A stretch of DNA of 50,205 nucleotides from a virus (taxonomy: Duplodnaviria; Caudoviricetes). Made by a program: the position numbers and the translations under genes. The stretch is from the IMG/VR virus record IMGVR_UViG_3300005805_000125, positions 1 through 50,205 of that record; one strand, written 5' to 3'. The number at the start of each line of letters is the position of its first letter. The stretch's first letter is position 1. This document shows, piece after piece, positions 453 to 44,358 of this stretch. A model generated the notes under the pieces. It saw only the letters and a program-made list of their open reading frames with translations, was not told the origin of the DNA and did not search any database.

Positions 453-1568
453 TTACCGAATTATGTCAATATCTTTACCACTAGTCCAAACCTCTATTTC
501 TGTTCTCACTCGGTTTTCATTCTTGAGTGATATAAATCTGTTGCTTGCTTTGTTCTTCCACCAGTCTGTAATGTTAGCCAAATAGTGTTTATCATAGTTA
601 TCATTCTTAACAATCTTATCTGTCTTTCCAAGAACAATATCTTTGAAATTAGCAATACCATAATCAGAGACATAGTACCGTTTCTGTTCAGTCAAGGCCT
701 TGGCCTTTGTAATGGTTGCCATGAACCTATCATAATCTTCTTTATGTGGTTTCAAGGCGGCTTTGGTCATTGCAACAATTGTACTTGATATCTTTAACTT
801 ACGACTTGATGCATCTTCAGGAACAAATGAACCGCCATTGATTTTCTCAACATAGTCTTTCAAATCATCGTATGGTTTACCATGCATCATTGGTAAGAAA
901 TCAGATTCGGTCACACCTTTAAATCTTAGGTATGGTTTCATACCATCATACTGTGAAATAGCCTTTGATGTGCCATACAAACTGGTTGTTTCAAACAAGC
1001 ACATATTCATGCCATACTTAGCATTAATCATTTCACGGACTTCATGTGAACAACAGATTGCCGCCAACAGTTTACCACCAAGGTAATTATACCCAAATGG
1101 TTGTGCAGGTACAATAACAAAACCCATGGCAGATGCGTTATTAAACGATTTGGTCGTTGCCGTTTCGTTTGTAATCACACAGCCTAGTAACTCATTACGA
1201 GGCTTCATCATAATCGTTGGAGACCCTATCCGTATGAACCCGACCCACTTATTAGTCTTTTTCTCAAGCACAGCCAACTTGATGTTTCTGCCGGGACTTG
1301 ATAAATTATTATGGGAAGAAATGATATCTAGGTATAGTTGCCAACGGTCAGAAGGCAACTTAACTATTTCAAATTCCATATCTTCAGGTGCCATTATGAA
1401 GTCAGAAAACAATTCATCTTCTGGTCCACATCCTGGCAATGAGAATGGCCTTTCAGCCAAAGAATTCATTTTCTGCTCACGCATATACTCATCAATGCGA
1501 TTAAAGTTGCCAAAATAATCTTCAAATACTTGGGCAACATATAATGCTTGTTCTCTATTTAAATTCAT
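453..1568 (-). CDS. DUF4338/DruA-like protein, putative GNAT-like fold (paralog 1)
   Basis: Motifs PGRNIKL, IVPAQPFGYNYLGGKLLA and ETTSLYG...SQYD; clear paralogy with 19897..21219. Confidence 0.6.
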   Translation of the reverse strand: MNLNREQALYVAQVFEDYFGNFNRIDEYMREQKMNSLAERPFSLPGCGPEDELFSDFIMAPEDMEFEIVKLPSDRWQLYLDIISSHNNLSSPGRNIKLAVLEKKTNKWVGFIRIGSPTIMMKPRNELLGCVITNETATTKSFNNASAMGFVIVPAQPFGYNYLGGKLLAAICCSHEVREMINAKYGMNMCLFETTSLYGTSKAISQYDGMKPYLRFKGVTESDFLPMMHGKPYDDLKDYVEKINGGSFVPEDASSRKLKISSTIVAMTKAALKPHKEDYDRFMATITKAKALTEQKRYYVSDYGIANFKDIVLGKTDKIVKNDNYDKHYLANITDWWKNKASNRFISLKNENRVRTEIEVWTSGKDIDIIR

Positions 1569-19697: not shown

Positions 19698-19758
19698 AGT
19701 ATAACACAACTGGCCTATATGTCAAGGCAATAAAAAAGACTGTCGTTTTTATGCGACA
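19698..19758 (-). promoter_or_regulatory. Sigma70 promoter with upstream palindrome
   Basis: TTGACA-16 nt-TATACT; TGTCGCATAAAAACGACA at 19741-19758, followed by a T-run, so it could also terminate the upstream RNA. Confidence 0.7.
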
Positions 19759-19771
19759 GCCTTAGGGAAAG

Positions 19772-19837
19772 TGGAGCGGGGTTAGGGAATTAAACCATCT
19801 ATTTTTCTTGGGAGAAAAACTGTCTCAGACACCCCGC
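19772..19837 (-). ncRNA. Aberrant 66-nt tRNA-Gly-like RNA
   Basis: GCGGGGT GTCTGAGAC AG TTTTTC TCCCAA GAAAAA TAGATGG TTTAATT CCCTA ACCCCGC T CCA: perfect 7-bp acceptor stem, U73, encoded CCA, anticodon-like hairpin containing CCC/TCC, minimal D arm. Confidence 0.75.
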
Positions 19838-19896
19838 ATTTTTTACTTCATATAATTATATATGCTCTTTATCATCAAAATTGTGGGCATATATTA

Positions 19897-21219
19897 TTAT
19901 CTGCCTACTTGTGAAAGGTACTTATCTTTGGTCTGTTGCCAATCCATAAAAATAAGATCGTCATAAAATAAAGACTCATAGGAAACAGTATTTTTTTTCA
20001 CTAGTTGTTTGATACGACCTTTAGCGTGTTTGTTCTTCCAAATGTCAACCAATGATTCGTAGCTAGTATCAAATGATTTCACTAAGGCATCTTCTTTGAT
20101 TTCACCACGGAGAAACTCATAGCTGTTGTTGTACAAAGGACTAAAGTAAATACCACGAGCATGGTCTGTACGAATGATATCTTTAGGCACACCAAGTTTA
20201 GTGTAAGTGAATGCTAGTGAACGATTCTTATGGTCCCGCTTATGTGGTTGACCAGAAGGTTTCTTTGCAACATACCATTCAAAATACTTACGAGTATGTT
20301 TAGCTTTCAACCACTCACGAATCAAGTAACGAGTATCTCTTCCGGGTTCAAACGACACAGAACCTGCTGTGAATCCCATCTTCTGCCAATGGTCAAGGTT
20401 ATCATATTGTGATAAACCATTCAACTTGGTTTTACCATACAATGATGTTGTTGTTACACCAATCAAAGTATCACCGTATTGTTTCTTCCATAAATTCTGC
20501 ACTTCATCAGATAGGCACAACAAGGCTAGTAGTTTACCACCAACATAATTGTAACCTAATGGTTGGAATGGAACAATAGTAGAACCAATCGCAGTATGGT
20601 TAATCATACCACCTTGAGTTTTCAATTCTCTTGGCCAACCAATAACCTCATCACGAGGAGTTAAATCAAGAAAGTCGGATGAAATACAAATAACTCCAAG
20701 ATACTTACCTGACTTATCATCTTTAACAAAGAAATTAAGATTACGGCCGATATTGGAATTATTCTTCATTGTTGAAATGAAATTACGAGCTGTGTTCCAT
20801 TTCTCAGGCAACTCTTTACTTCGTTTCATGTCAACTTGGATGTCAGAGCCATCAACACCTTTGGCGGACATTACACCAGAATCATCTGTATATTCCAAAA
20901 CAGGCTGAAGATTTAGATAGTCATCATGTGATGTTGGAACCCAAATGTTGTTCTTCACAGAATCAACTATGATTTGCTGCTTTGGGTCAAGAAGTTGGAC
21001 TTCTTCTCCAAATAAAGTTTGATTCACAACAGTCGGATATTTTTCATGTACTTCACACCACTTCTGGTACAAAGTATATTCTTTTACATCCATTTGTGAA
21101 ACATAAGCTAAATCACTAATAGTTTTTTCTTTCAATTCACCATCATCTATATCCATGAATGAAGAGGCAGGATTCTCATCTTGCCACTTAATCCATTGGG
21201 TTTCAATATCATCAATCAT
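19897..21219 (-). CDS. DUF4338/DruA-like protein, putative GNAT-like fold (paralog 2)
   Basis: IGRNLNF, GSTIVPFQPLGYNYVGGKLLALL, VTTTSLYG...SQYD, GFTAG, HARGIY. Confidence 0.65.
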   Translation of the reverse strand: MIDDIETQWIKWQDENPASSFMDIDDGELKEKTISDLAYVSQMDVKEYTLYQKWCEVHEKYPTVVNQTLFGEEVQLLDPKQQIIVDSVKNNIWVPTSHDDYLNLQPVLEYTDDSGVMSAKGVDGSDIQVDMKRSKELPEKWNTARNFISTMKNNSNIGRNLNFFVKDDKSGKYLGVICISSDFLDLTPRDEVIGWPRELKTQGGMINHTAIGSTIVPFQPLGYNYVGGKLLALLCLSDEVQNLWKKQYGDTLIGVTTTSLYGKTKLNGLSQYDNLDHWQKMGFTAGSVSFEPGRDTRYLIREWLKAKHTRKYFEWYVAKKPSGQPHKRDHKNRSLAFTYTKLGVPKDIIRTDHARGIYFSPLYNNSYEFLRGEIKEDALVKSFDTSYESLVDIWKNKHAKGRIKQLVKKNTVSYESLFYDDLIFMDWQQTKDKYLSQVGR

Positions 21220-24758: not shown

Positions 24759-25306
24759 TTTTCATCATCTTCATCAATTTCTTCTTCAACAAAAAGTTCA
24801 AGGCCTTTTGCCTTAACTTTCTTTTTTGCATCTTTTGTTTTTTCATATGTTTCAATAAACTCAGCAATGTTATCATACATTTGAAATTGTTGCATTTTGC
24901 CATGTTCATCTTCATACATCTCACCTTCATTCAACAATCCAAATTGCTGTGTGGCTTTATACTTAACATATAATTGTTTCTTTTCTTTTTGAATTCTACG
25001 CAAAAAAGCAAAGTAAATAATTTGAGTAAAGTATGCAAACGGGTTCTTTGATTTATCAGGATCAAAATTTCTAAAGTATTGAATACAATTTTCAATACCA
25101 TCACAAATCATTTCATCACGGAATGAATAAGATACAAAGTTTGGTTTACGAGATAAGTGTTCTGCAATTTTCAGAAAACATTCACCAACATAATTAGGGA
25201 TAGGAGGATCTTCTTTATTAAGTTCTTTGGCCTTTGCACACCTATCGTGATAGTCAACTAGTGCAACAAGAAAATCTCCGTTGTTAATGTAATGTTTTTT
25301 ACTCAT
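24755..25306 (-). CDS. gp55: Late transcription sigma factor (T4 gp55)
   Basis: HYINN, KIAEHLSRKPNF, NPFAYFTQIIYFAFLRRIQKEKKQ. Confidence 0.96.
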   Translation of the reverse strand: MSKKHYINNGDFLVALVDYHDRCAKAKELNKEDPPIPNYVGECFLKIAEHLSRKPNFVSYSFRDEMICDGIENCIQYFRNFDPDKSKNPFAYFTQIIYFAFLRRIQKEKKQLYVKYKATQQFGLLNEGEMYEDEHGKMQQFQMYDNIAEFIETYEKTKDAKKKVKAKGLELFVEEEIDEDDEK

Positions 25307-26229
25307 ACATTACCATATTTCGTATTCTTAATCATACGATATCCTTTAACCAGTTCTGATATACCAAAATTTAAATTGTGTTTAGTTTTAAAACCGGTGT
25401 TTTCAATTTTTTGATTAGACACAATGTAATTTCTTTGATCTGGATCTTTACCAATTTCAGCTTCAATAAATGTAAATGTTGGAACATATTGTTTAATTGC
25501 TTCACAGAGTTCCCATTTAGACACATTAGCTTCAGACAAACCAACATTATAAATGTTGCCTTTCATATCACTAAAATTGTTTATAGCATGGCCAAAAGCA
25601 TTAACAACATCACGCACATGAACATAGTTGCGTTTGAAATGGCTTTCAAATAAAATAACAAAACCATCTTTAACAGCACGATGAACAAAATCATTAACAA
25701 GTAAATCAATACGCATACGAGGTGACATACCAAAAACAGTTGCTAATCTATAACTAATCGCATTTGAATGTTCCATCAATTCTTTTTCAATGATTACTTT
25801 ATCAATAGCATATTTTGAAATTGGATTCAATGGTGATTCTTCTGTGCAAAACTCACCGGTTCCGTATGCGCTATTAGTCGTAGGCATAATAACAATTTGA
25901 TCCTTATCTAACTTCTTCAACATTGTCTGGATAGCTTGTACATTAGTTGTATCAGCTCCAACCGGATCTTGTTTGCAAATTGGTGCACCAACTAATGCCG
26001 CAAGAGGTATAATAATATCAGCATCTTTCAACAGAAAGTTAATATCAGATTCAACTCGCACATCGCCTTTGTAAACATTGAATTTTGGGTTACCGCATAA
26101 ATGATTTAAGCTGGTTTGATCATACATAAAATTATCAAGCACTGTAACATTATGATTAGAATTCAATAACTCAGGTACAAGCATTGATCCAATATAACCT
26201 GCACCTCCTGTAACTAATATATTAGCCAT
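25303..26229 (-). CDS. NAD-dependent nucleotide-sugar epimerase/dehydratase/reductase (extended SDR)
   Basis: TGGAGYIG, LAALVG, YAIDK (YxxxK), RNYVHVRD. Confidence 0.9.
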   Translation of the reverse strand: MANILVTGGAGYIGSMLVPELLNSNHNVTVLDNFMYDQTSLNHLCGNPKFNVYKGDVRVESDINFLLKDADIIIPLAALVGAPICKQDPVGADTTNVQAIQTMLKKLDKDQIVIMPTTNSAYGTGEFCTEESPLNPISKYAIDKVIIEKELMEHSNAISYRLATVFGMSPRMRIDLLVNDFVHRAVKDGFVILFESHFKRNYVHVRDVVNAFGHAINNFSDMKGNIYNVGLSEANVSKWELCEAIKQYVPTFTFIEAEIGKDPDQRNYIVSNQKIENTGFKTKHNLNFGISELVKGYRMIKNTKYGNV

Positions 26230-26230
26230 T

Positions 26231-27400
26231 TTATACCTTATTTAAAATATTTGTTATTGAATCAATCTCATCAAATGTCATTGAAGGAAAATTACCAATA
26301 TAGAACCCATAAAAATGAACATGTTCAGTATTTGGATAATTCAAATAATGTCCATCAGGAACAATACCTTTAAGATATGGCTGGCGCAACTGATTGCCTC
26401 CTCCTGCACTACCTCTTCGGTATTCTATACCATATGTTTGCATTGTATTCATCAATCTTGTAACATACTCAGGATCTTTTTTCAATAACAATAAATTAAA
26501 AGCGTAATTACTAGACCCAATTAATTTAAAGTCAGTTGCAAATCTATTCATATCTAATTTTCTTAGAAATCTAAAATGGTTTTCATTACGCATTTTAACA
26601 TTTTCATCTAACTTTGTCAACTGTTTTCTACCAAGTATGCCGCCCAACTCTGTGTTACGCATGTTGTAGGCTGCATGAGCAAAGATAAAATCTGGATTTA
26701 ATTCTGGATTCTCTTTAACATATTTTGATTTTCTACTTGGATTATTAATCTCACGAACCATGCCATGTGATCTAAGCATACGGAGTGTTTCATACACTTC
26801 AGGGTCATTTGTGCATACCATGCCACCTTCAATTGTTGTCATATGATGTGCATAATAAAAAGAAAAGTTAGACATTAATCCAATGCTACCTAACAATCTG
26901 TTACCATGGCTTGCACCATGAGATTCACAAACATCTTCAATTAAAGGGATATTTTGATCAGCTAATTCGTAAATAAGTTTATCTGTTAATGCATTGAAGC
27001 CTTGAATATGACTTAGAAATACAGCTCTTGTTTTTGGTGTGATAGCATCCAATATTTTTTGATTATTCATACCCAATGTATCTAAATCAATGTCCACAAA
27101 AACAGGAGTAAAACCACATTGAATAACTGATGCGATATCAGAAACCCATGTTAGAGGAGGAACAATAACTTCTCCACCTTCCGGATGTTTAATTTTCAAA
27201 ACCGTCATAGACAAAAGATTAGCAGAGGCTCCTGAATTAACAAAAACAGAATAGTGAACACCCAACCATTTTGACCATTCATCTTCAAATTTCTTACAAT
27301 TTGGTCCATTGGTTAAAATTGGATCATCTTGTTTTAGATGTTCAATCATTGCATCTAAATCTGATCTACTAATATTATTACGCATTAAAGGGTATTTCAT
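26231..27400 (-). CDS. DegT/DnrJ-family PLP enzyme, ColD/RfbH(E1)-like 3-dehydratase
   Basis: VNSGASANL, EDVCESHGA, and SFYYAHHMTTIEGG with His at the usual Schiff-base Lys position. Confidence 0.82.
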   Translation of the reverse strand: MKYPLMRNNISRSDLDAMIEHLKQDDPILTNGPNCKKFEDEWSKWLGVHYSVFVNSGASANLLSMTVLKIKHPEGGEVIVPPLTWVSDIASVIQCGFTPVFVDIDLDTLGMNNQKILDAITPKTRAVFLSHIQGFNALTDKLIYELADQNIPLIEDVCESHGASHGNRLLGSIGLMSNFSFYYAHHMTTIEGGMVCTNDPEVYETLRMLRSHGMVREINNPSRKSKYVKENPELNPDFIFAHAAYNMRNTELGGILGRKQLTKLDENVKMRNENHFRFLRKLDMNRFATDFKLIGSSNYAFNLLLLKKDPEYVTRLMNTMQTYGIEYRRGSAGGGNQLRQPYLKGIVPDGHYLNYPNTEHVHFYGFYIGNFPSMTFDEIDSITNILNKV

Positions 27401-27407
27401 TATAACC

Positions 27408-28397
27408 TCACGATTTTAAAACAAGTTGAGTTCCATCTACATCAAACTTAAATGGTATCCAAACTTTAATTGAATTCATTTTTTGTTTAAACATTTTTTG
27501 TTTCTCAGGAGGAACTAAAAACAAAAAGAAACCTCCACCTCCAGCTCCCATCAGTTTACCACCTAGTGACCCACATCTAATTGAATTGTGATATATGTTA
27601 TCAATCCAAGATTCTGTTACACCATCAGCCAATTCTCTTTTTAACGACCAACTGTCATGTAATAAATCACCTATTGTTTTCATGTCAGATTCTTTTATTA
27701 GACAATCAATTGCTTTATTACTAAGTTCACTAATGTTATCAAGAAAATTATTTGTACTACCTTTTTTAATATTTTCTACTTGTTTTTTGGAAACACTTTC
27801 TGAAATTCTACTGACACCAGAGAATCCTATCATAACATAATTTTCAAGCTCTTTACGGTAATCATACGATAAAGGTAAAGCACTAGATTGCCAAGACACA
27901 CCTGGACCCATTTCAATTAAACGAATACCTCCATGAGCAGCCATAATTTGATCTTGTATTCCAACATTTTCACCTATTATGTTTTGCTCAACGAAAATGG
28001 CTTCTCTTGATAATCTTTCACGGCTAATTTCTTCGCCTTTTAATACATGTAATGCATGTAACAATCCAACCGTAAAAGATGAGCTTGAACCTATACCAGA
28101 TCTAGCTGGTAAATCTCCATCATATGCAATAGAAATGCCGTTTGGTATATTCATATATTTCAAACAAGCTTTTACTGATGGGTGATTAATTTCTGAAAAT
28201 GTATTAACACTTTCAATTTTAGAATACACAACTTGATTTTTATGTTCAAAGAAGGGTGGCAATACTTTAACGGTAAAATAACAATAGTTAGCTATAGCAG
28301 CTGAAACTACCCGGCTAGGTTTATTTTCAAACCATGCTGGATAGTCTGTACCGCCACCAAACAATGATATTCTATATGGCGTTTTGGTTATAATCAT
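27408..28397 (-). CDS. GHMP-family sugar kinase, HddA (heptose-7-phosphate kinase)-like
   Basis: TPYRISLFGGGTD, DLPARSGIGSSSS, GIQDQ, GGKLMGAGGGGF. Confidence 0.88.
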   Translation of the reverse strand: MIITKTPYRISLFGGGTDYPAWFENKPSRVVSAAIANYCYFTVKVLPPFFEHKNQVVYSKIESVNTFSEINHPSVKACLKYMNIPNGISIAYDGDLPARSGIGSSSSFTVGLLHALHVLKGEEISRERLSREAIFVEQNIIGENVGIQDQIMAAHGGIRLIEMGPGVSWQSSALPLSYDYRKELENYVMIGFSGVSRISESVSKKQVENIKKGSTNNFLDNISELSNKAIDCLIKESDMKTIGDLLHDSWSLKRELADGVTESWIDNIYHNSIRCGSLGGKLMGAGGGGFFLFLVPPEKQKMFKQKMNSIKVWIPFKFDVDGTQLVLKS

Positions 28398-28402
28398 AAA
28401 AA

Positions 28403-30238
28403 TTATTCACTAGTTAATACCGGATTAACCACATCTGGCATCGCTGGTGTTTCCCATCCTTCAATTGGTTCAATGTACATATTAGATTTAAATTCTGCTC
28501 TATCAATATATGGGTACATATCTTCAATTGGTGTGCTCCAACCAAAAATTCTAGGTTCATATGTGTGATATTCATCAATATCCAAATCACACACAACTGA
28601 TTCGTCAGACTCTAAAATTTCAGAAATTGTTTTCTCAACATCACCTGGATTTTTTAACGATACAGTTTTAATCCCGTATGCATTACAGATATCAATAAAA
28701 TTTGGTGGTGAATATCCTTTTGGCCCACAAGCTTCTGCTCGGCCTTGGAAGTTTGTTTCTTGATATGCTTTTGTAATGCCGTAAATATGATTATTCATAA
28801 TGAAAGTTTTAATTTTACAACCATAATTTTTGATTGTTTGTAACTCTTGAAGGTTCATATTAAAACCGCCGTCACCAATAATACAAACAATAGTTTTTTC
28901 AGGAGCTGCAAACCAAGCACCAATTGCCGCAGCAAAAGAAAATCCCATTGGAGAGTTACCATTATTTGTAATGAAGTGTTGTCCCAATTTGGTTTCAAAT
29001 GCCTGTGATGCAATGACAATGTTACCACCACAATCAGCAACAATTACACCATCATTTTTAATTTGTTCAGCAAGCTGCCGCATGAACCGGTAAGGGTGAA
29101 TTACTGTTGTTGATGATCCAAAATTTGGCTTTACTGGATCATATTTAACTTTCCATTCTTGAGCCTCTTTCAACCAATCATTGTGTTGAGGTTTGTATCC
29201 TGTTTCAATAATTAATTCTTTAAGTATTGATAGAAACAACTTGGCATCAGATTTAATATTTACATCAAAAGGAACTTGTTGCAATTGAGGCTGTAATTGT
29301 GCTTCATCAATATCAACCATAATTTTTTTGGCATTTCTAGCAAAAGAAGATACATTACCTCCTGTAATACGGCCTGAAATTCTTGATGCCACAGAAATTA
29401 ACAGATCACTATTTTGAATAGCAAAGTTTCTTCCTGCACCACCATATGTACCAACACGACCACAATATGTTTCTAGGTCACTAGTAACAATATCTAATGC
29501 ATTCCATGTTGGAAATGTAGGCACTTGCAACAATTTAGAAACTTCTTGTAGTAAAGGAATAGCTTGTGCATTTTTTACTCCACCACCAACTAAAATAACT
29601 GGTCTAGTTGATTTCTTTAAATCTGCCAATAATTCTAAAACTAAAGATTTGATTCTTTTTTCATCGTACTCAGTAGTGTGAATGCCTACATCAAACCCAA
29701 TTTGTTTTTCTGGATCAATTAATTTCTTTTGTAAATCAAGAGGCACATCAAGAAGAACAGGACCTGGTCTTCCAGATTTAGCTAGATGAATTGCTTTTTC
29801 AATTTCATACTTAACTGTATTAGGATCAACAAGCATCTTAGCATATTTTGTAATTGGTTTAACAATTGAAACAATATCCGTTTCTTGAAAACCAATCTGA
29901 CGCAATGATTCATCAGGCCTCAAAAACTTACTGTTGATTTGACCTGTAATGAAAATTGCAGGAACAGAATCATAGAAACAGTTACCAATTGGTGTAACAA
30001 AGTTCATACCGCCAGGACCACTTGTTGCAATAGAGACACCAATCTTACCTGATGTTTTTGCATAAGCTTCAGCTGCAAAACCACCAGCCTGCTCGTGCAT
30101 TACAGCAACATAAGAAGTTTTTTCTGTTCGGGTGAAAGCATCAATAAGATCACCGTTTGCAGCACCATAGACAACAAACATCTTATCAATGCCTTCATCG
30201 GCCAATTTATTAATTATATAATCTGCAATTTTTATCAT
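28403..30238 (-). CDS. ThDP-dependent acetolactate-synthase-like enzyme (YerE-like by context)
   Basis: HEQAGGFAA, TSGPG, GRPGPV, and the GDGG-x(n)-NN ThDP-binding motif. Confidence 0.88.
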   Translation of the reverse strand: MIKIADYIINKLADEGIDKMFVVYGAANGDLIDAFTRTEKTSYVAVMHEQAGGFAAEAYAKTSGKIGVSIATSGPGGMNFVTPIGNCFYDSVPAIFITGQINSKFLRPDESLRQIGFQETDIVSIVKPITKYAKMLVDPNTVKYEIEKAIHLAKSGRPGPVLLDVPLDLQKKLIDPEKQIGFDVGIHTTEYDEKRIKSLVLELLADLKKSTRPVILVGGGVKNAQAIPLLQEVSKLLQVPTFPTWNALDIVTSDLETYCGRVGTYGGAGRNFAIQNSDLLISVASRISGRITGGNVSSFARNAKKIMVDIDEAQLQPQLQQVPFDVNIKSDAKLFLSILKELIIETGYKPQHNDWLKEAQEWKVKYDPVKPNFGSSTTVIHPYRFMRQLAEQIKNDGVIVADCGGNIVIASQAFETKLGQHFITNNGNSPMGFSFAAAIGAWFAAPEKTIVCIIGDGGFNMNLQELQTIKNYGCKIKTFIMNNHIYGITKAYQETNFQGRAEACGPKGYSPPNFIDICNAYGIKTVSLKNPGDVEKTISEILESDESVVCDLDIDEYHTYEPRIFGWSTPIEDMYPYIDRAEFKSNMYIEPIEGWETPAMPDVVNPVLTSE

Positions 30239-31752
30239 TCTGTCTCCAATAATTTTCTTTTGAGTTTAATCTTTCGGGTTTCATTTAATTCGTTAACGGC
30301 TTTATCACCAAATTTTGTTTTAACCATGTTTAGATAATTTTCATTTGAATGATAAATGTCCCATGCATAATCCCTAAAGGATAAAATTTGTGCGGCTGTT
30401 AAGTTCTCACTTGCCAAATTCAGAGTATCATATGAATGTTGACTATATCCTGAATATGTTTTTGGTAAATCTATGTTAAATAATCTAGCTTGATTGTGTA
30501 AAGGACTACCAGGATATGCCATGGCAGAATACATATTAGTCATTTCCGTTGGATTTTCTAATGCAAAATCAAGTGTTGCTTGCATTGATTCTTGTGTGTC
30601 AAATGGCAAACCAAATATGTAATTACCTGCAATGTTGATACCAGCTTCACGAATAACTTTAAATAAATCTAAAATTCTAACCTCTTGAAATCCTTCTTTA
30701 TGAATTTCTTTTCGTAGGTCATTGTTTGGGTTTTCAATACCTAAACCCAACCAATTTACTCCGGCCTTTGCAAGTTTATCTAGATACTTTGGTTTACAGG
30801 TATCAACTCTTGAATATGCCCAAATGTTAAAATCATATCCTCTTTCAATAATCAGATCACAAATAGCCTCAAAGTGTCTTGGATTTAACACAAATAGTTC
30901 ATCAGCAATCTTTACATTCTTAACGCCCTGTTCAGCAATGTAATCAAACTGTTTAATAATAAATTCAGGAGACCACCAACGGAAAATATTACTATCTTCT
31001 GATGAGACATTTGAACCTTGTTTTGTTCTATTGATAATGTTAATCATACAAAATGAACATTTGTACGGACATCCAAGGCTGGTATAAAGTGCAGCAAATG
31101 GTTGTTTTTCAGTATCGTTTGTCCAAGAATGCCACCCAGCTGTTCTGTATCTAGAAAGTGGTGGTAATAAATCCCATGCCATTCCAGGCAATTCAACCTC
31201 AAGAGAACTTCTTGGAACAATTTCAGAAGGTGGATTTAAACAAATTTGATTATCGCTTGTTCTAAAAACCAACCCATCAATTTTCTTTAAGTTGTGTTCG
31301 TCAAATGAGGATAGTTTTAACAAATTTTGAATTGTATATACGCCTTCATTTTGACAAACGGCATCAATGAAACTTTCTTTTTCAAGTGTTTCAACTGGCA
31401 ATGCAGCAACATGCCCGCCAACAAACAATACAAAACTATTCGGTTCAAGGTTTTTTAATTCTCTTGCCGTTGCAGTAGCACCTTCCATGTTTTGAGAAGA
31501 TGCAGATGGTTGTTGGCCATATACAACAAAACAAACAACCTTAGCTTTGTATTCAGTAATTCTTTTAGCAGCTGAAAGATAATCTAAACCTTCAACCTCT
31601 GCATCAAGAATTTCTGGCCTGAATCCTTTACTTCGCACACTATTGGCCAACATTGCTGCCCATATAGGTGGTTCAATTGCTGCATTGTTTTTCGCAAGGC
31701 CTTGGTATATGACCTCAGATGCATTTGGATGCACAAAAAGAATGTCAATCAT
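30235..31752 (-). CDS. Cobalamin-binding radical SAM protein (class B methyltransferase-like)
   Basis: N-terminal B12-binding-like domain (VGGH), CPYKCSFC (CxxxCxxC), GIE, YIFGLP, YPGS. Confidence 0.88.
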   Translation of the reverse strand: MIDILFVHPNASEVIYQGLAKNNAAIEPPIWAAMLANSVRSKGFRPEILDAEVEGLDYLSAAKRITEYKAKVVCFVVYGQQPSASSQNMEGATATARELKNLEPNSFVLFVGGHVAALPVETLEKESFIDAVCQNEGVYTIQNLLKLSSFDEHNLKKIDGLVFRTSDNQICLNPPSEIVPRSSLEVELPGMAWDLLPPLSRYRTAGWHSWTNDTEKQPFAALYTSLGCPYKCSFCMINIINRTKQGSNVSSEDSNIFRWWSPEFIIKQFDYIAEQGVKNVKIADELFVLNPRHFEAICDLIIERGYDFNIWAYSRVDTCKPKYLDKLAKAGVNWLGLGIENPNNDLRKEIHKEGFQEVRILDLFKVIREAGINIAGNYIFGLPFDTQESMQATLDFALENPTEMTNMYSAMAYPGSPLHNQARLFNIDLPKTYSGYSQHSYDTLNLASENLTAAQILSFRDYAWDIYHSNENYLNMVKTKFGDKAVNELNETRKIKLKRKLLETE

Positions 31753-42456: not shown

Positions 42457-44358
42457 TTAGAATCGGCCAACGATTTCATCAAACGAAACGCCGGTACGAA
42501 CCGCAACAAAATTCAACTGAATGAAGTTAACTGATCGAGCTGGCTTAATATAGATATCACCAACAAACTCATTGCGATCAATAATTTCACCAGTATTATT
42601 AGTTGTATCGCAAACAACACGATAGTCGGTAATACCACGGCGACCTTGAACATCACGCAAATAAGGTTCTACTAAGTTAACAAATTGAGCTCTTGTAAAC
42701 TGGTCGTTAAATTCAAACATCGTTGAACGAGCAGCACGAGCGATAGTTTTCTCTAATACAATAAACAGACGGCGAACATTGATACGATCAAATACTGATG
42801 GACGACTCAACAAAGTTTTATCGCCAAACAGAATTGTGCCTTCACCTTGGAAGGTAACGACAGGATTAATACCTTGAACATATAGGTTATCACGATCAGT
42901 CTTAGTTGGATTCCAAGCAAGTTTAATCAAATTCTTAATTACGCCACGATTTAAACCACCTGGTGAGAACCAAGGATCACGCTCAAGGTCTGTGCGAGCA
43001 CAAACACCAGCAATATCACCATTCAAAGGAACCCAACGGTAAACATCGTTGTATTTGTCATACTGATATTTATAGCCAGAATCAAGAACAGCATATGAAG
43101 AACTTGATAGTCCAGAACGGAAAGAAAGAATACTTGTAGTCTCATTACCAGCATTATTAACAACTGATGACTTTGTTGGTGACAAGAAAACCATACAATC
43201 TTTACGAGATTCAACAAGAGAAATTAGACCAGCTGCTATTGTTGCATTTCCTGGACCAGAAATTAATAGCGACAATTCAACAGAATCTTGAGCCGCAAAA
43301 AAATCATATGCTGTGTCAACTTCAGTATTACCAATTGTACCGTTTGCACCAGCTGACATTGAAGCTGAGAATGGAGAATTGATGTTTGTGAATGTTTTAG
43401 CAACAGAACTTGTTCCCCAATTTGATGCACCTGGTTGATGATTTAACCACCAAACATATTGTGATCTATTATTAATAACATTTTTATAATAATTTGATTC
43501 ACCTTCGTTAGTTATTGCATCTGAAGCTTTTGATACAAATGAGTATTTTTCAAGAACTGTATTTGCAACGCCAGAGAATATACCATCTTCATCAATAACA
43601 ATAACATGCAATTCATCGCCGCTACCATTATTGTCTGAAGTGTAATCAGATGTTCCTGGTGCAACGCCAAACTGGTCAGCATATTGCCATTTGCGTAAGA
43701 TTGCTGTACCTACAACAACTGCTCCTGGTGCCGTGGCTGTAATGATTGCAGTTGCGTTAACAGAAGCTACACGAACATATGATGAACCACCATCAACAGA
43801 AATCAAGTCACCAGCAACCAAATTGGCAGCTGCGTTTGCACTACCGTTAACATTAATTGTGGTGTCAGTAGCTCCAACAGCATTTGCTCTTAAAGAATCT
43901 GTAACTGTTAAGTTTGCTGAAAATGCTTGTGTGCTTGGGCAGATAGAAATTCTTAGTGAATTTCCACCATCACCAGCGTAGCGAGCACCAAATGGTCCCA
44001 GTGATGTGTTGGCCGATGATTCCCAGTTTGCAACATAGTCGCTTTCATTCTTAATCAAAGCACCAACGCCGTTTGCAGTGGCATTATATGTTGATGAAGT
44101 ATTTGCAGCACGAACAACTTTTAAATTATTTGTATAAGCTAGAAAGTTTGCAGCTGAGAACCAGTATTCATAATTTGTAGAGTCTGGCTTACCAAAACGA
44201 TCAACAAGGCGAACCTCGTCAGAAATGGTAATGACTTCACCAACTGGACCCCAGTTAAAATTTCCAGCGATGCCACCAATTGAAGTAGCAATAGAAGGGA
44301 TAACTGTAGTCAGGTCAATTTCTGATACATTTACCCCAGGTGATAGCTGAAATGCCAT
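42457..44358 (-). CDS. gp18: Tail sheath protein (T4 gp18)
   Basis: SPGVNVSEID, WFSPGG, GDKT, FDRINVRRLF, IYIKPARSVNFI. Confidence 0.97.
   Translation of the reverse strand: MAFQLSPGVNVSEIDLTTVIPSIATSIGGIAGNFNWGPVGEVITISDEVRLVDRFGKPDSTNYEYWFSAANFLAYTNNLKVVRAANTSSTYNATANGVGALIKNESDYVANWESSANTSLGPFGARYAGDGGNSLRISICPSTQAFSANLTVTDSLRANAVGATDTTINVNGSANAAANLVAGDLISVDGGSSYVRVASVNATAIITATAPGAVVVGTAILRKWQYADQFGVAPGTSDYTSDNNGSGDELHVIVIDEDGIFSGVANTVLEKYSFVSKASDAITNEGESNYYKNVINNRSQYVWWLNHQPGASNWGTSSVAKTFTNINSPFSASMSAGANGTIGNTEVDTAYDFFAAQDSVELSLLISGPGNATIAAGLISLVESRKDCMVFLSPTKSSVVNNAGNETTSILSFRSGLSSSSYAVLDSGYKYQYDKYNDVYRWVPLNGDIAGVCARTDLERDPWFSPGGLNRGVIKNLIKLAWNPTKTDRDNLYVQGINPVVTFQGEGTILFGDKTLLSRPSVFDRINVRRLFIVLEKTIARAARSTMFEFNDQFTRAQFVNLVEPYLRDVQGRRGITDYRVVCDTTNNTGEIIDRNEFVGDIYIKPARSVNFIQLNFVAVRTGVSFDEIVGRF

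Follow-up and report, generated by a model that had tools for sequence, protein, structure and literature searches.

We asked what is encoded by a 66-nt stretch of viral DNA that resembles a glycine tRNA only in part, and what such an RNA could do for the phage that carries it. The stretch lies in a 50,205-nt sequence (IMG/VR record IMGVR_UViG_3300005805_000125, positions 1 to 50,205), here called the window, which derives from a T4-like phage and encodes gp43, gp41, UvsX, the clamp and its loader, gp46/47, gp55, portal, capsid and sheath. An earlier note on this DNA had taken the stretch for a tRNA-Gly-like RNA that is selected to be chargeable and non-translating and is not a product of decay. 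As described in the following, it is a real, miniature tRNA-Gly-like RNA gene, and on balance we favour the reading that the RNA is charged by the host and acts as a non-translating glycyl donor for hypermodification of phage DNA.

The miniature RNA gene

The gene occupies the minus strand, a point on which the earlier note was silent, from G1 at 19837 to the CCA end at 19772, with the following parts and flanking signals:

19855..19860, minus strand: TATAAT box resembling a −10 element, 17 nt before G1
19831..19837, minus strand: 5′ strand of the acceptor stem; G1, C2, G3 and G4 are invariant in 33/33 aligned members, partly by construction, as the search pattern demanded the same ends
19822..19830, minus strand: 3-bp mini hairpin GTC-TGA-GAC in place of the D arm; two-sided changes in all three pairs
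19801..19820, minus strand: extended anticodon hairpin with a loop of 4–6 nt; all seven pairs covary
19783..19799, minus strand: T-like arm with loop TTTAATT; G53, A58 and C61 are kept, TTC is missing and the stem is weak in this copy
19772..19782, minus strand: 3′ strand of the acceptor stem, U73 discriminator and encoded CCA, as read in the sequence
19736..19763, minus strand: hairpin plus T run resembling an intrinsic terminator, starting 8 nt after the CCA

The reverse complement of 19772–19837 contains the 7-bp GCGGGGT/ACCCCGC acceptor, U73 and encoded CCA that the earlier note had described, and also its D arm cut down to a mini hairpin, here placed with its TGA loop in a spacer of 11 nt between acceptor and anticodon stem. 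The proposed TTTTTC/GAAAAA stem around TCCCAA is present too, but its register is ambiguous in this copy, where a 7-nt CU-CCC-AA loop closed by a U.G pair can also be drawn; three relatives of the same subgroup (L156, L172 and L180) covary in the register first proposed, with an anticodon loop of 6 or 4 nt. C35 and C36 fall at 19811 and 19810, and C27 and C28 are invariant in the alignment. For the T arm, the loop TTTAATT without TTC was as stated, but the stem was weaker than claimed, with G53–C61 and G52–C62 paired, a U.C mismatch at 51–63 and an open stem in the centroid fold. The minimum free energy of the element was −19.3 kcal/mol (z −2.40), a value equalled in 4 of 200 shuffles.

ARAGORN called no gene in the whole window, a miss that had been anticipated, and Rfam gave no hit on the element at gathering thresholds and no tRNA at E≤10; Rfam 15 holds no entry for the miniature RNA. 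The end pattern was found once in the window and nowhere else in 1,163,424 bases of 80 syntenic loci, which argues that the element is not there by chance.

The gene sits between that for a 440-aa protein (19897–21219) and a 68-aa ORF, which is followed by a CobT/CobS-like pair. The −35 region is poor in the window copy, many relatives have TTGAC or TTGAT boxes, and promoter prediction on the window did not call the TATAAT box of the element. One terminator-like hairpin was found, to be compared with a mean of 0.3 in shuffled sequence. In metatranscriptomes, a single 151-nt contig from one of four runs covered 19780–19923 and thereby most of the element, a kind of evidence that can show neither transcription nor ends. 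Elsewhere in the window, T4-type late promoter boxes (TATAAATA) occur on the minus strand at 43074, 37722 and 35203, two of them immediately in front of the genes for scaffold and tail tube.

Conservation, covariation and loss of translational features

Using the upstream protein we gathered 80 viral loci, of which 73 could be evaluated after removal of three with a truncated gene and four with less than 150 nt of downstream sequence. An element of 63–69 nt with the same ends was found at most 200 nt downstream of the gene in 66 of these 73 loci, while seven had no RNA beside the gene; in the group L180–L192, G1 follows the stop codon of the upstream gene by only 2 nt. Alignment of the window copy with 32 of 33 distinct elements gave a column identity of 67%. 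After RNAalifold, a structure of four helices was chosen, on which 87.1% of the alignment cells could pair as compared with 64.1% after shuffling, and two-sided changes were seen in 17 of 22 pairs, a number reached by 13 of 500 shuffles. The covariation score was 0.495, against 0.137 for shuffled alignments and 0.11–0.17 for slid controls. Compensatory change was present in all four helices, as exemplified by the third pair of the mini hairpin, which in the alignment is UA in 10, CG in 9, AU in 4 and GC in 3. The conserved and covarying homologues for which the earlier note had suggested a search do exist. A covariance model (R2) built from the family scored the window copy, itself part of the training set, at 66.6 bits.

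With this, it is hardly credible that the element is a decaying tRNA pseudogene or a remnant of an attachment site. The failure of ARAGORN and Rfam to recognize it and the imperfect T stem of the window copy would suit such an origin, which is contradicted by the compensatory change in every helix, by the roughly 430 stretches estimated for one subtype, and by the completeness of the gene, terminator included, in a T4-like phage.

The figure of 430 comes from a second scan, in which only the ends and the T loop were constrained and the anticodon was left free, and which covered at least 120 loci. Among the matches listed, 92 of 100 distinct ones were structured. All 92 had an anticodon loop of 3–6 nt (5 nt in 80 of them), and a script found CC in the central loop of 89; in the other three, where the script had taken the mini hairpin instead, CC was seen by eye. 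Unstructured matches had CC in four of eight cases among those listed. In the 92 structured matches listed, position 34 was free, 33 was often G and 37 often C.

It was also clear that the T arm of the family had changed, as (G)TTC was kept by none of the 33 aligned members, in which G51–C63, a pair bound tightly by EF-Tu, occurred in four. The commonest start of the T loop is TGC in the family and TTT in the window copy. In the interior and at the ends, the only elements fixed were the GlyRS identity elements G1–C72, C2–G71 and C35/C36; the determinants of E. coli GlyRS are given as U73, G1–C72, C2–G71, C35 and C36 in PMC9976931. Retention of these elements, as claimed earlier, was thereby upheld, including C35/C36 in the search that had left the anticodon free. 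Measured against canonical tRNA-Gly, the RNA has G1–C72, C2–G71, U73, C35, C36 and CCA, whereas it lacks a D arm with a 3–4-bp stem and a G18G19 loop, a 7-nt anticodon loop with U33 and purine 37, the TTC of the T loop, and detection by ARAGORN or by Rfam RF00005. Judged by its alignment, the family has lost the decoding loop, the D loop and TTC while the GlyRS identity set has stayed, and its members are likely shrunken glycine tRNAs unable to work on the ribosome. The comparative data hence support the view of the earlier note that selection has favoured a chargeable but non-translating RNA, where charging and exclusion from EF-Tu are predicted properties.

The contrasting possibility, namely that the RNA is a minimal tRNA-Gly that does translate, like the D-armless tRNAs of mitochondria, and adds to glycine decoding, seems to us very improbable. 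It could draw on the 7-nt loop that the window copy permits, on the retained G53, A58 and C61, and on the TTC kept in 10 of 28 RNAs at the DAM-GNAT loci described below. It has to contend with the uniformly short anticodon loops among the matches listed, the frequent G33 and C37, the fact that GGG is the rarest glycine codon of the window (24 of 578 in 19 ORFs), and the canonical tRNA-Gly genes that adjoin the RNA in many phages.

Some phages carry two dissimilar RNAs of the family, in tandem or close together (L195, L223, L343, L414, L432 and L433).

GNAT-fold genes beside the RNAs

The gene upstream of the RNA and a paralog of it elsewhere in the window are the following:

19897..21219, minus strand: 440-aa DUF4338/DruA-like GNAT-fold protein, the proposed partner, ending 59 nt before G1
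453..1568, minus strand: 371-aa DruA-like paralog (PF14236, E 6e-11; phrog_19197)

The neighbour matched PF14236 with E 4e-20 and 72.5 bits, above the gathering cut-off of 27, as does DruA/DUF4338 of Druantia type I; as a difference from that system it is encoded by the phage, with its gene following gp46/47 in the replication module, and no other Druantia gene is annotated in the window as far as PHROGs go. DUF4338 has been called a GNAT before (PMC10853773). A first structural model of the neighbour (pLDDT 81) had Mu Mom as its top Foldseek row (E 0.024) and, with VIA, Mom tied with SpeG at Z 8.8. For a better AF2 model (pLDDT 94) the Foldseek rows listed were other GNATs, without Mom, and a wide VIA search placed Mu Mom first of 48,161 chains (Z 9.7, rmsd 4.1, 173 aligned residues), a lead over the next chain at 8.9 that is within the tie margin of 1 Z to ordinary GNATs; FemA scored 8.1. 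The sequence gave no PF25680 match, the hhalign probability against the profile of Mom, an enzyme having R111, S124, D149 and R151 as catalytic residues, was 0.2 with both shallow and deeper profiles, and a PDB sequence search returned chance rows only. Going by the models, the neighbour certainly has a GNAT fold and is plausibly Mom-like; by sequence, it is not a member of PF25680. That family was not found above its cut-off in any of 23 phage records, so that no classical Mom partner turned up in the RNA-bearing phages tested.

The paralog is possibly a second user of the RNA. Proteins of 370–380 aa similar to it recur in many related phages. Structural homologues of the neighbour are found in BFVD among giant viruses (A0A3G4ZXG3, A0A5K0UAJ3 and A0A3G4ZRA1, from Faunusvirus, Yasminevirus and Dasosvirus), and a cyanophage homologue (PQ898602.1:133706-134827) was labelled 'methylcarbamoylase mom' by its depositors; the only tRNA-Gly found in that cyanophage genome was canonical.

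Starting instead from the RNA, 74 loci with flanks were studied, six of 80 having been left out as chance. The DUF4338 gene adjoined the RNA in 13 of the 74, and most of the others were in or near phage tRNA clusters, often beside canonical tRNA-Gly; because it coexists with such genes, the miniature RNA is not a replacement for them. On 20 long contigs where the RNA lies away from the gene, 16 encoded a full ortholog and two a weaker homolog, with none on two partial contigs. One of the two with a weaker homolog, G004, is 91% complete and has the RNA; DruA matches in G050 and G051, which lay on other contigs, were left out of the support. As a control we used 22 long tRNA-Gly-bearing phage records from the first pattern scan. 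Among the 19 without a DUF4338 ortholog, none had a TTC-less Gly RNA, as judged from model matches of which 30 of 47 were inspected; the three with an ortholog had two family RNAs, a 70-nt TTC-less variant, and none (this record being 34% complete). At 83 more distant DUF4338 loci, the fetched DNA held a TTC-less Gly RNA in 26 cases, a canonical one only in two and none in 55, and 33 of these 55 had at least 3 kb of downstream DNA. As T4-like phages share ancestry, the co-occurrence seen among them is confounded; many of the loci nearly duplicate one another.

In two cultured pelagiphages, HTVC008M and Mosig, a DUF4338 ortholog is followed about 3.9 and 6.5 kb downstream, respectively, by a 74-nt TTC-less tRNA-Gly(ACC) that has the look of a full-length ancestor of the miniature RNAs. 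These genes are located at NC_020484.1:91140-91213 (HTVC008M) and MT647606.1:7779-7852 (Mosig); ARAGORN finds the former and misses the latter, and the HTVC008M copy is unannotated in the region shown. Two further variants were seen. A distinct 70-nt subtype (L232, L271 and L279) occurs in phages with a weak DUF4338 homolog or none seen, and a 72-nt tRNA-Gly(TCC) with a short, odd D arm and intact TTC (L002, L004, L068, L077, L107 and L114) occurs in large phages without a DUF4338 ortholog.

Links outside the DUF4338 family were sought at mom loci, 79 of which were gathered by a Mom alignment (41 distant homologs and 38 Mu-like). At the 3′ end of mom, seven of them had a TTC-less RNA of 70 nt whose mini hairpin is GTC/GAC and whose CC loop is short; all seven were among the distant homologs, and no short RNA was present at the Mu-like loci, including Mu itself. 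Four of the seven RNAs start 43–483 nt past the stop codon and three overlap the last part of the mom frame, in which they begin. At L712, L717, L736 and L738 the RNA starts immediately after the conserved C-terminal motif of mom, within the open reading frame and 84–108 nt before the first stop.

A further set consisted of 79 viral loci gathered with a PF22559 alignment query, PF22559 being a GNAT family fused to a DAM-like domain; a scan of the DAM-GNAT kind using a single protein as query had found nothing. A Gly-acceptor RNA of 64–72 nt with a short CC loop was present at 28 of the 79, always on the strand of the gene and within ~1.5 kb upstream of it in 18, these 28 being the RNAs that in 10 cases keep TTC. 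Canonical tRNA-Gly was found at two further loci, and three block-shuffles gave no RNA. Of 59 control loci gathered by terminase, the 53 without a GNAT had no such RNA, and one was in range among the six with a DAM-GNAT. Fisher's test of 28/79 against 0/53 gave p of about 1e-7, a value that overstates the case because the loci are related; as many are near-duplicates, the counts are of records, not of events.

In a scan of bacterial genomes, 15 of 120 matches were structured among those listed, the rest being mostly chance. At L475 the RNA ends 48 nt before a gene for the DAM-like plus GNAT fusion (PF22555 + PF22559). In three of five genomes tested the DAM-GNAT gene was on the same contig as the RNA; the RNAs of the other two were chromosomal, beside tRNA-Ala, and similar RNAs also occur in chromosomal settings without a phage or GNAT in the fetched DNA. 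Chromosomal tRNA-Gly-like genes of 68–70 nt, having an anticodon loop of 5 nt and TGC in the T loop, were seen at L506, L546, L550, L572, L541 and L557, with ctsR-clpC (L506) and tRNA-Ala (L541 and L557) as neighbours. ARAGORN calls three of this set tRNA-Trp; they are possibly non-proteogenic donors outside the staphylococci.

RNAs of the same build are, in summary, repeatedly linked to three GNAT families, true Mom homologs included. The R2 model matched 18 of 28 sources of these distant RNAs with 25–65 bits and canonical tRNA-Gly with 30–39 bits; as it cannot separate the two, a shared origin of the RNAs at mom and PF22559 loci with the DUF4338 family is unsupported, and the three groups may be convergent. 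No description of such RNAs linked to mom, DUF4338 or PF22559 was found in the literature searched, which covered few of the subscription papers and included PMC7824862 and PMC12458937.

The linkage bears on whether the RNA could act as decoy or sponge, drawing off host defences or toxins that read the acceptor of tRNA-Gly (TacT-like GNATs, FaRel2-like toxSAS) or a sink for GlyRS, with its proximity to GNAT genes incidental. TacT reads U73 and G71 (PMC9976931), FaRel2 picks tRNA-Gly by its acceptor stem (PMC11245113), and the fast divergence of the interior, together with tandem dissimilar copies (L195, L414 and L432), would suit an arms race. We regard such a role as improbable, for it leaves unexplained both why C35/C36 are kept with position 34 free and why the RNAs are linked to three GNAT families and were found at 0/53 GNAT-free control loci.

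A proposed glycyl donor for phage DNA

Both ingredients of a glycyl donor for DNA modification have precedents, in the donor tRNAs of staphylococci and in Mom. The staphylococcal non-proteogenic tRNA-Gly species NP1-3 are donors for FmhB, FemA and FemB, have T loops with TGC or TGT and weak T-stem pairs, and belong to a lineage called staphylococcus-only, all as stated in PMC7826273, where EF-Tu is also said to inhibit FmhB by sequestering ordinary Gly-tRNA. The phage RNAs share with NP1-3 the glycine identity set and the proposed use outside translation, where a GNAT-fold transferase would receive the glycyl group. To a degree they also share the T-arm features, with TGC or TGT in place of TTC (TGC is common in the family, and the window copy has TTT) and a weak 51–63 pair (G51–C63 in four of 33). 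They differ in being encoded by phages or prophages, in their length of 63–72 nt, in a D arm reduced to a 3-bp stub, an anticodon stem of 7–9 bp and a free position 34, and in their linkage, which is to GNATs of DNA modification and not to Fem ligases; NP tRNA-Gly is a full-length, Fem-used cloverleaf of staphylococci, whereas the RNA of the window has 66 nt and belongs to a T4-like phage. A scan of 57 window proteins found no Fem gene.

In dsDNA, Mom places glycine taken from Gly-tRNA-Gly on N6 of adenine, and each of the three E. coli tRNA-Gly isoacceptors can serve it (PMC13219725, accessible part, which makes no mention of phage-encoded donor tRNAs). Mu Mom (PF25680, PDB 8BV8) resembles the system studied here in the GNAT fold, as the top VIA match of the neighbour, and in the RNAs of the same build that accompany its distant homologs. 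In contrast, Mu uses host tRNA-Gly and encodes none, and the 440-aa DUF4338 neighbour is not detectably similar to Mom in sequence and has only a predicted activity. With Mu and 37 close mom loci lacking the RNA, and with all host isoacceptors being taken by Mom, the RNA can be at most accessory. The DAM-like plus GNAT fusion of temperate phages is likewise flanked by RNAs of the same build; it belongs to a separate GNAT family, absent from the window, and is presumably a DNA modifier.

That the RNA is a non-translating glycyl donor we consider quite probable. Its siting, again and again, beside Mom relatives and genes of acyltransferase fold makes it likely to be a private glycine carrier for a predicted DNA-modifying enzyme. 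As for a partner, which the earlier note did not name, Mom-like GNATs and DNA are better supported than the Fem transferases of cell walls. DNA as target of the glycyl transfer is favoured with less assurance. An acceptor other than DNA, with DUF4338 or its paralog glycylating a protein, glycan or lipid in the manner of Fem, MprF or L/F transferases, strikes us as unlikely. The evidence from the RNAs fits it equally well, the fold search cannot single out Mom among GNATs, similar RNAs exist in bacterial chromosomes beside ctsR or tRNA-Ala, and the window has a sugar-biosynthesis cluster; what speaks for DNA is that, of the two other linked families, Mom is proven to modify DNA and the second is fused to a domain resembling DNA adenine methylase, and that the DUF4338 gene is within the replication module behind gp46/47. 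The cluster, of sugar-nucleotide type, is at 25303-31752 on the minus strand, between gp55 and UvsW, and encodes an epimerase, an aminotransferase, a GHMP kinase, a TPP enzyme and a B12 radical SAM protein.

For the donor of glycine to phage DNA we infer a course that runs from expression, processing, glycylation and EF-Tu escape to use by DUF4338, a DNA target and protection from restriction. The RNA would be transcribed from its own promoter or together with the GNAT mRNA, trimmed by RNase P and charged with glycine by host GlyRS. Once charged it would slip past both EF-Tu and the ribosome; the GNAT-fold enzyme encoded next to it, DUF4338, would take the glycine and transfer it to replicated phage DNA, as Mu Mom does, whereupon the modified DNA would be protected from host restriction.

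We see about an even chance that the case is general, in that phages and prophages widely encode unannotated, miniature, ribosome-proof tRNA-Gly RNAs as co-substrates for tRNA-dependent DNA hypermodification, that the RNA flags DUF4338/DruA and the PF22559 fusions as new DNA modifiers using Gly-tRNA, and that a base derived from glycine, as yet undescribed, is present in abundant T4-like phages of freshwater and of SAR11. If so, a virus would be encoding a tRNA made for DNA chemistry and not for translation, kept out of competition with EF-Tu, and both DUF4338/DruA, with the Druantia subunit, and PF22559, GNAT families so far uncharacterised, would gain a testable function, with a modified base predicted in the cultured pelagiphages HTVC008M and Mosig. 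Standard annotation misses the miniature RNA, which would be a natural minimal substrate of GlyRS, predicted to be orthogonal to translation, and which adds an answer other than codon usage to the question of why phages carry tRNA genes.
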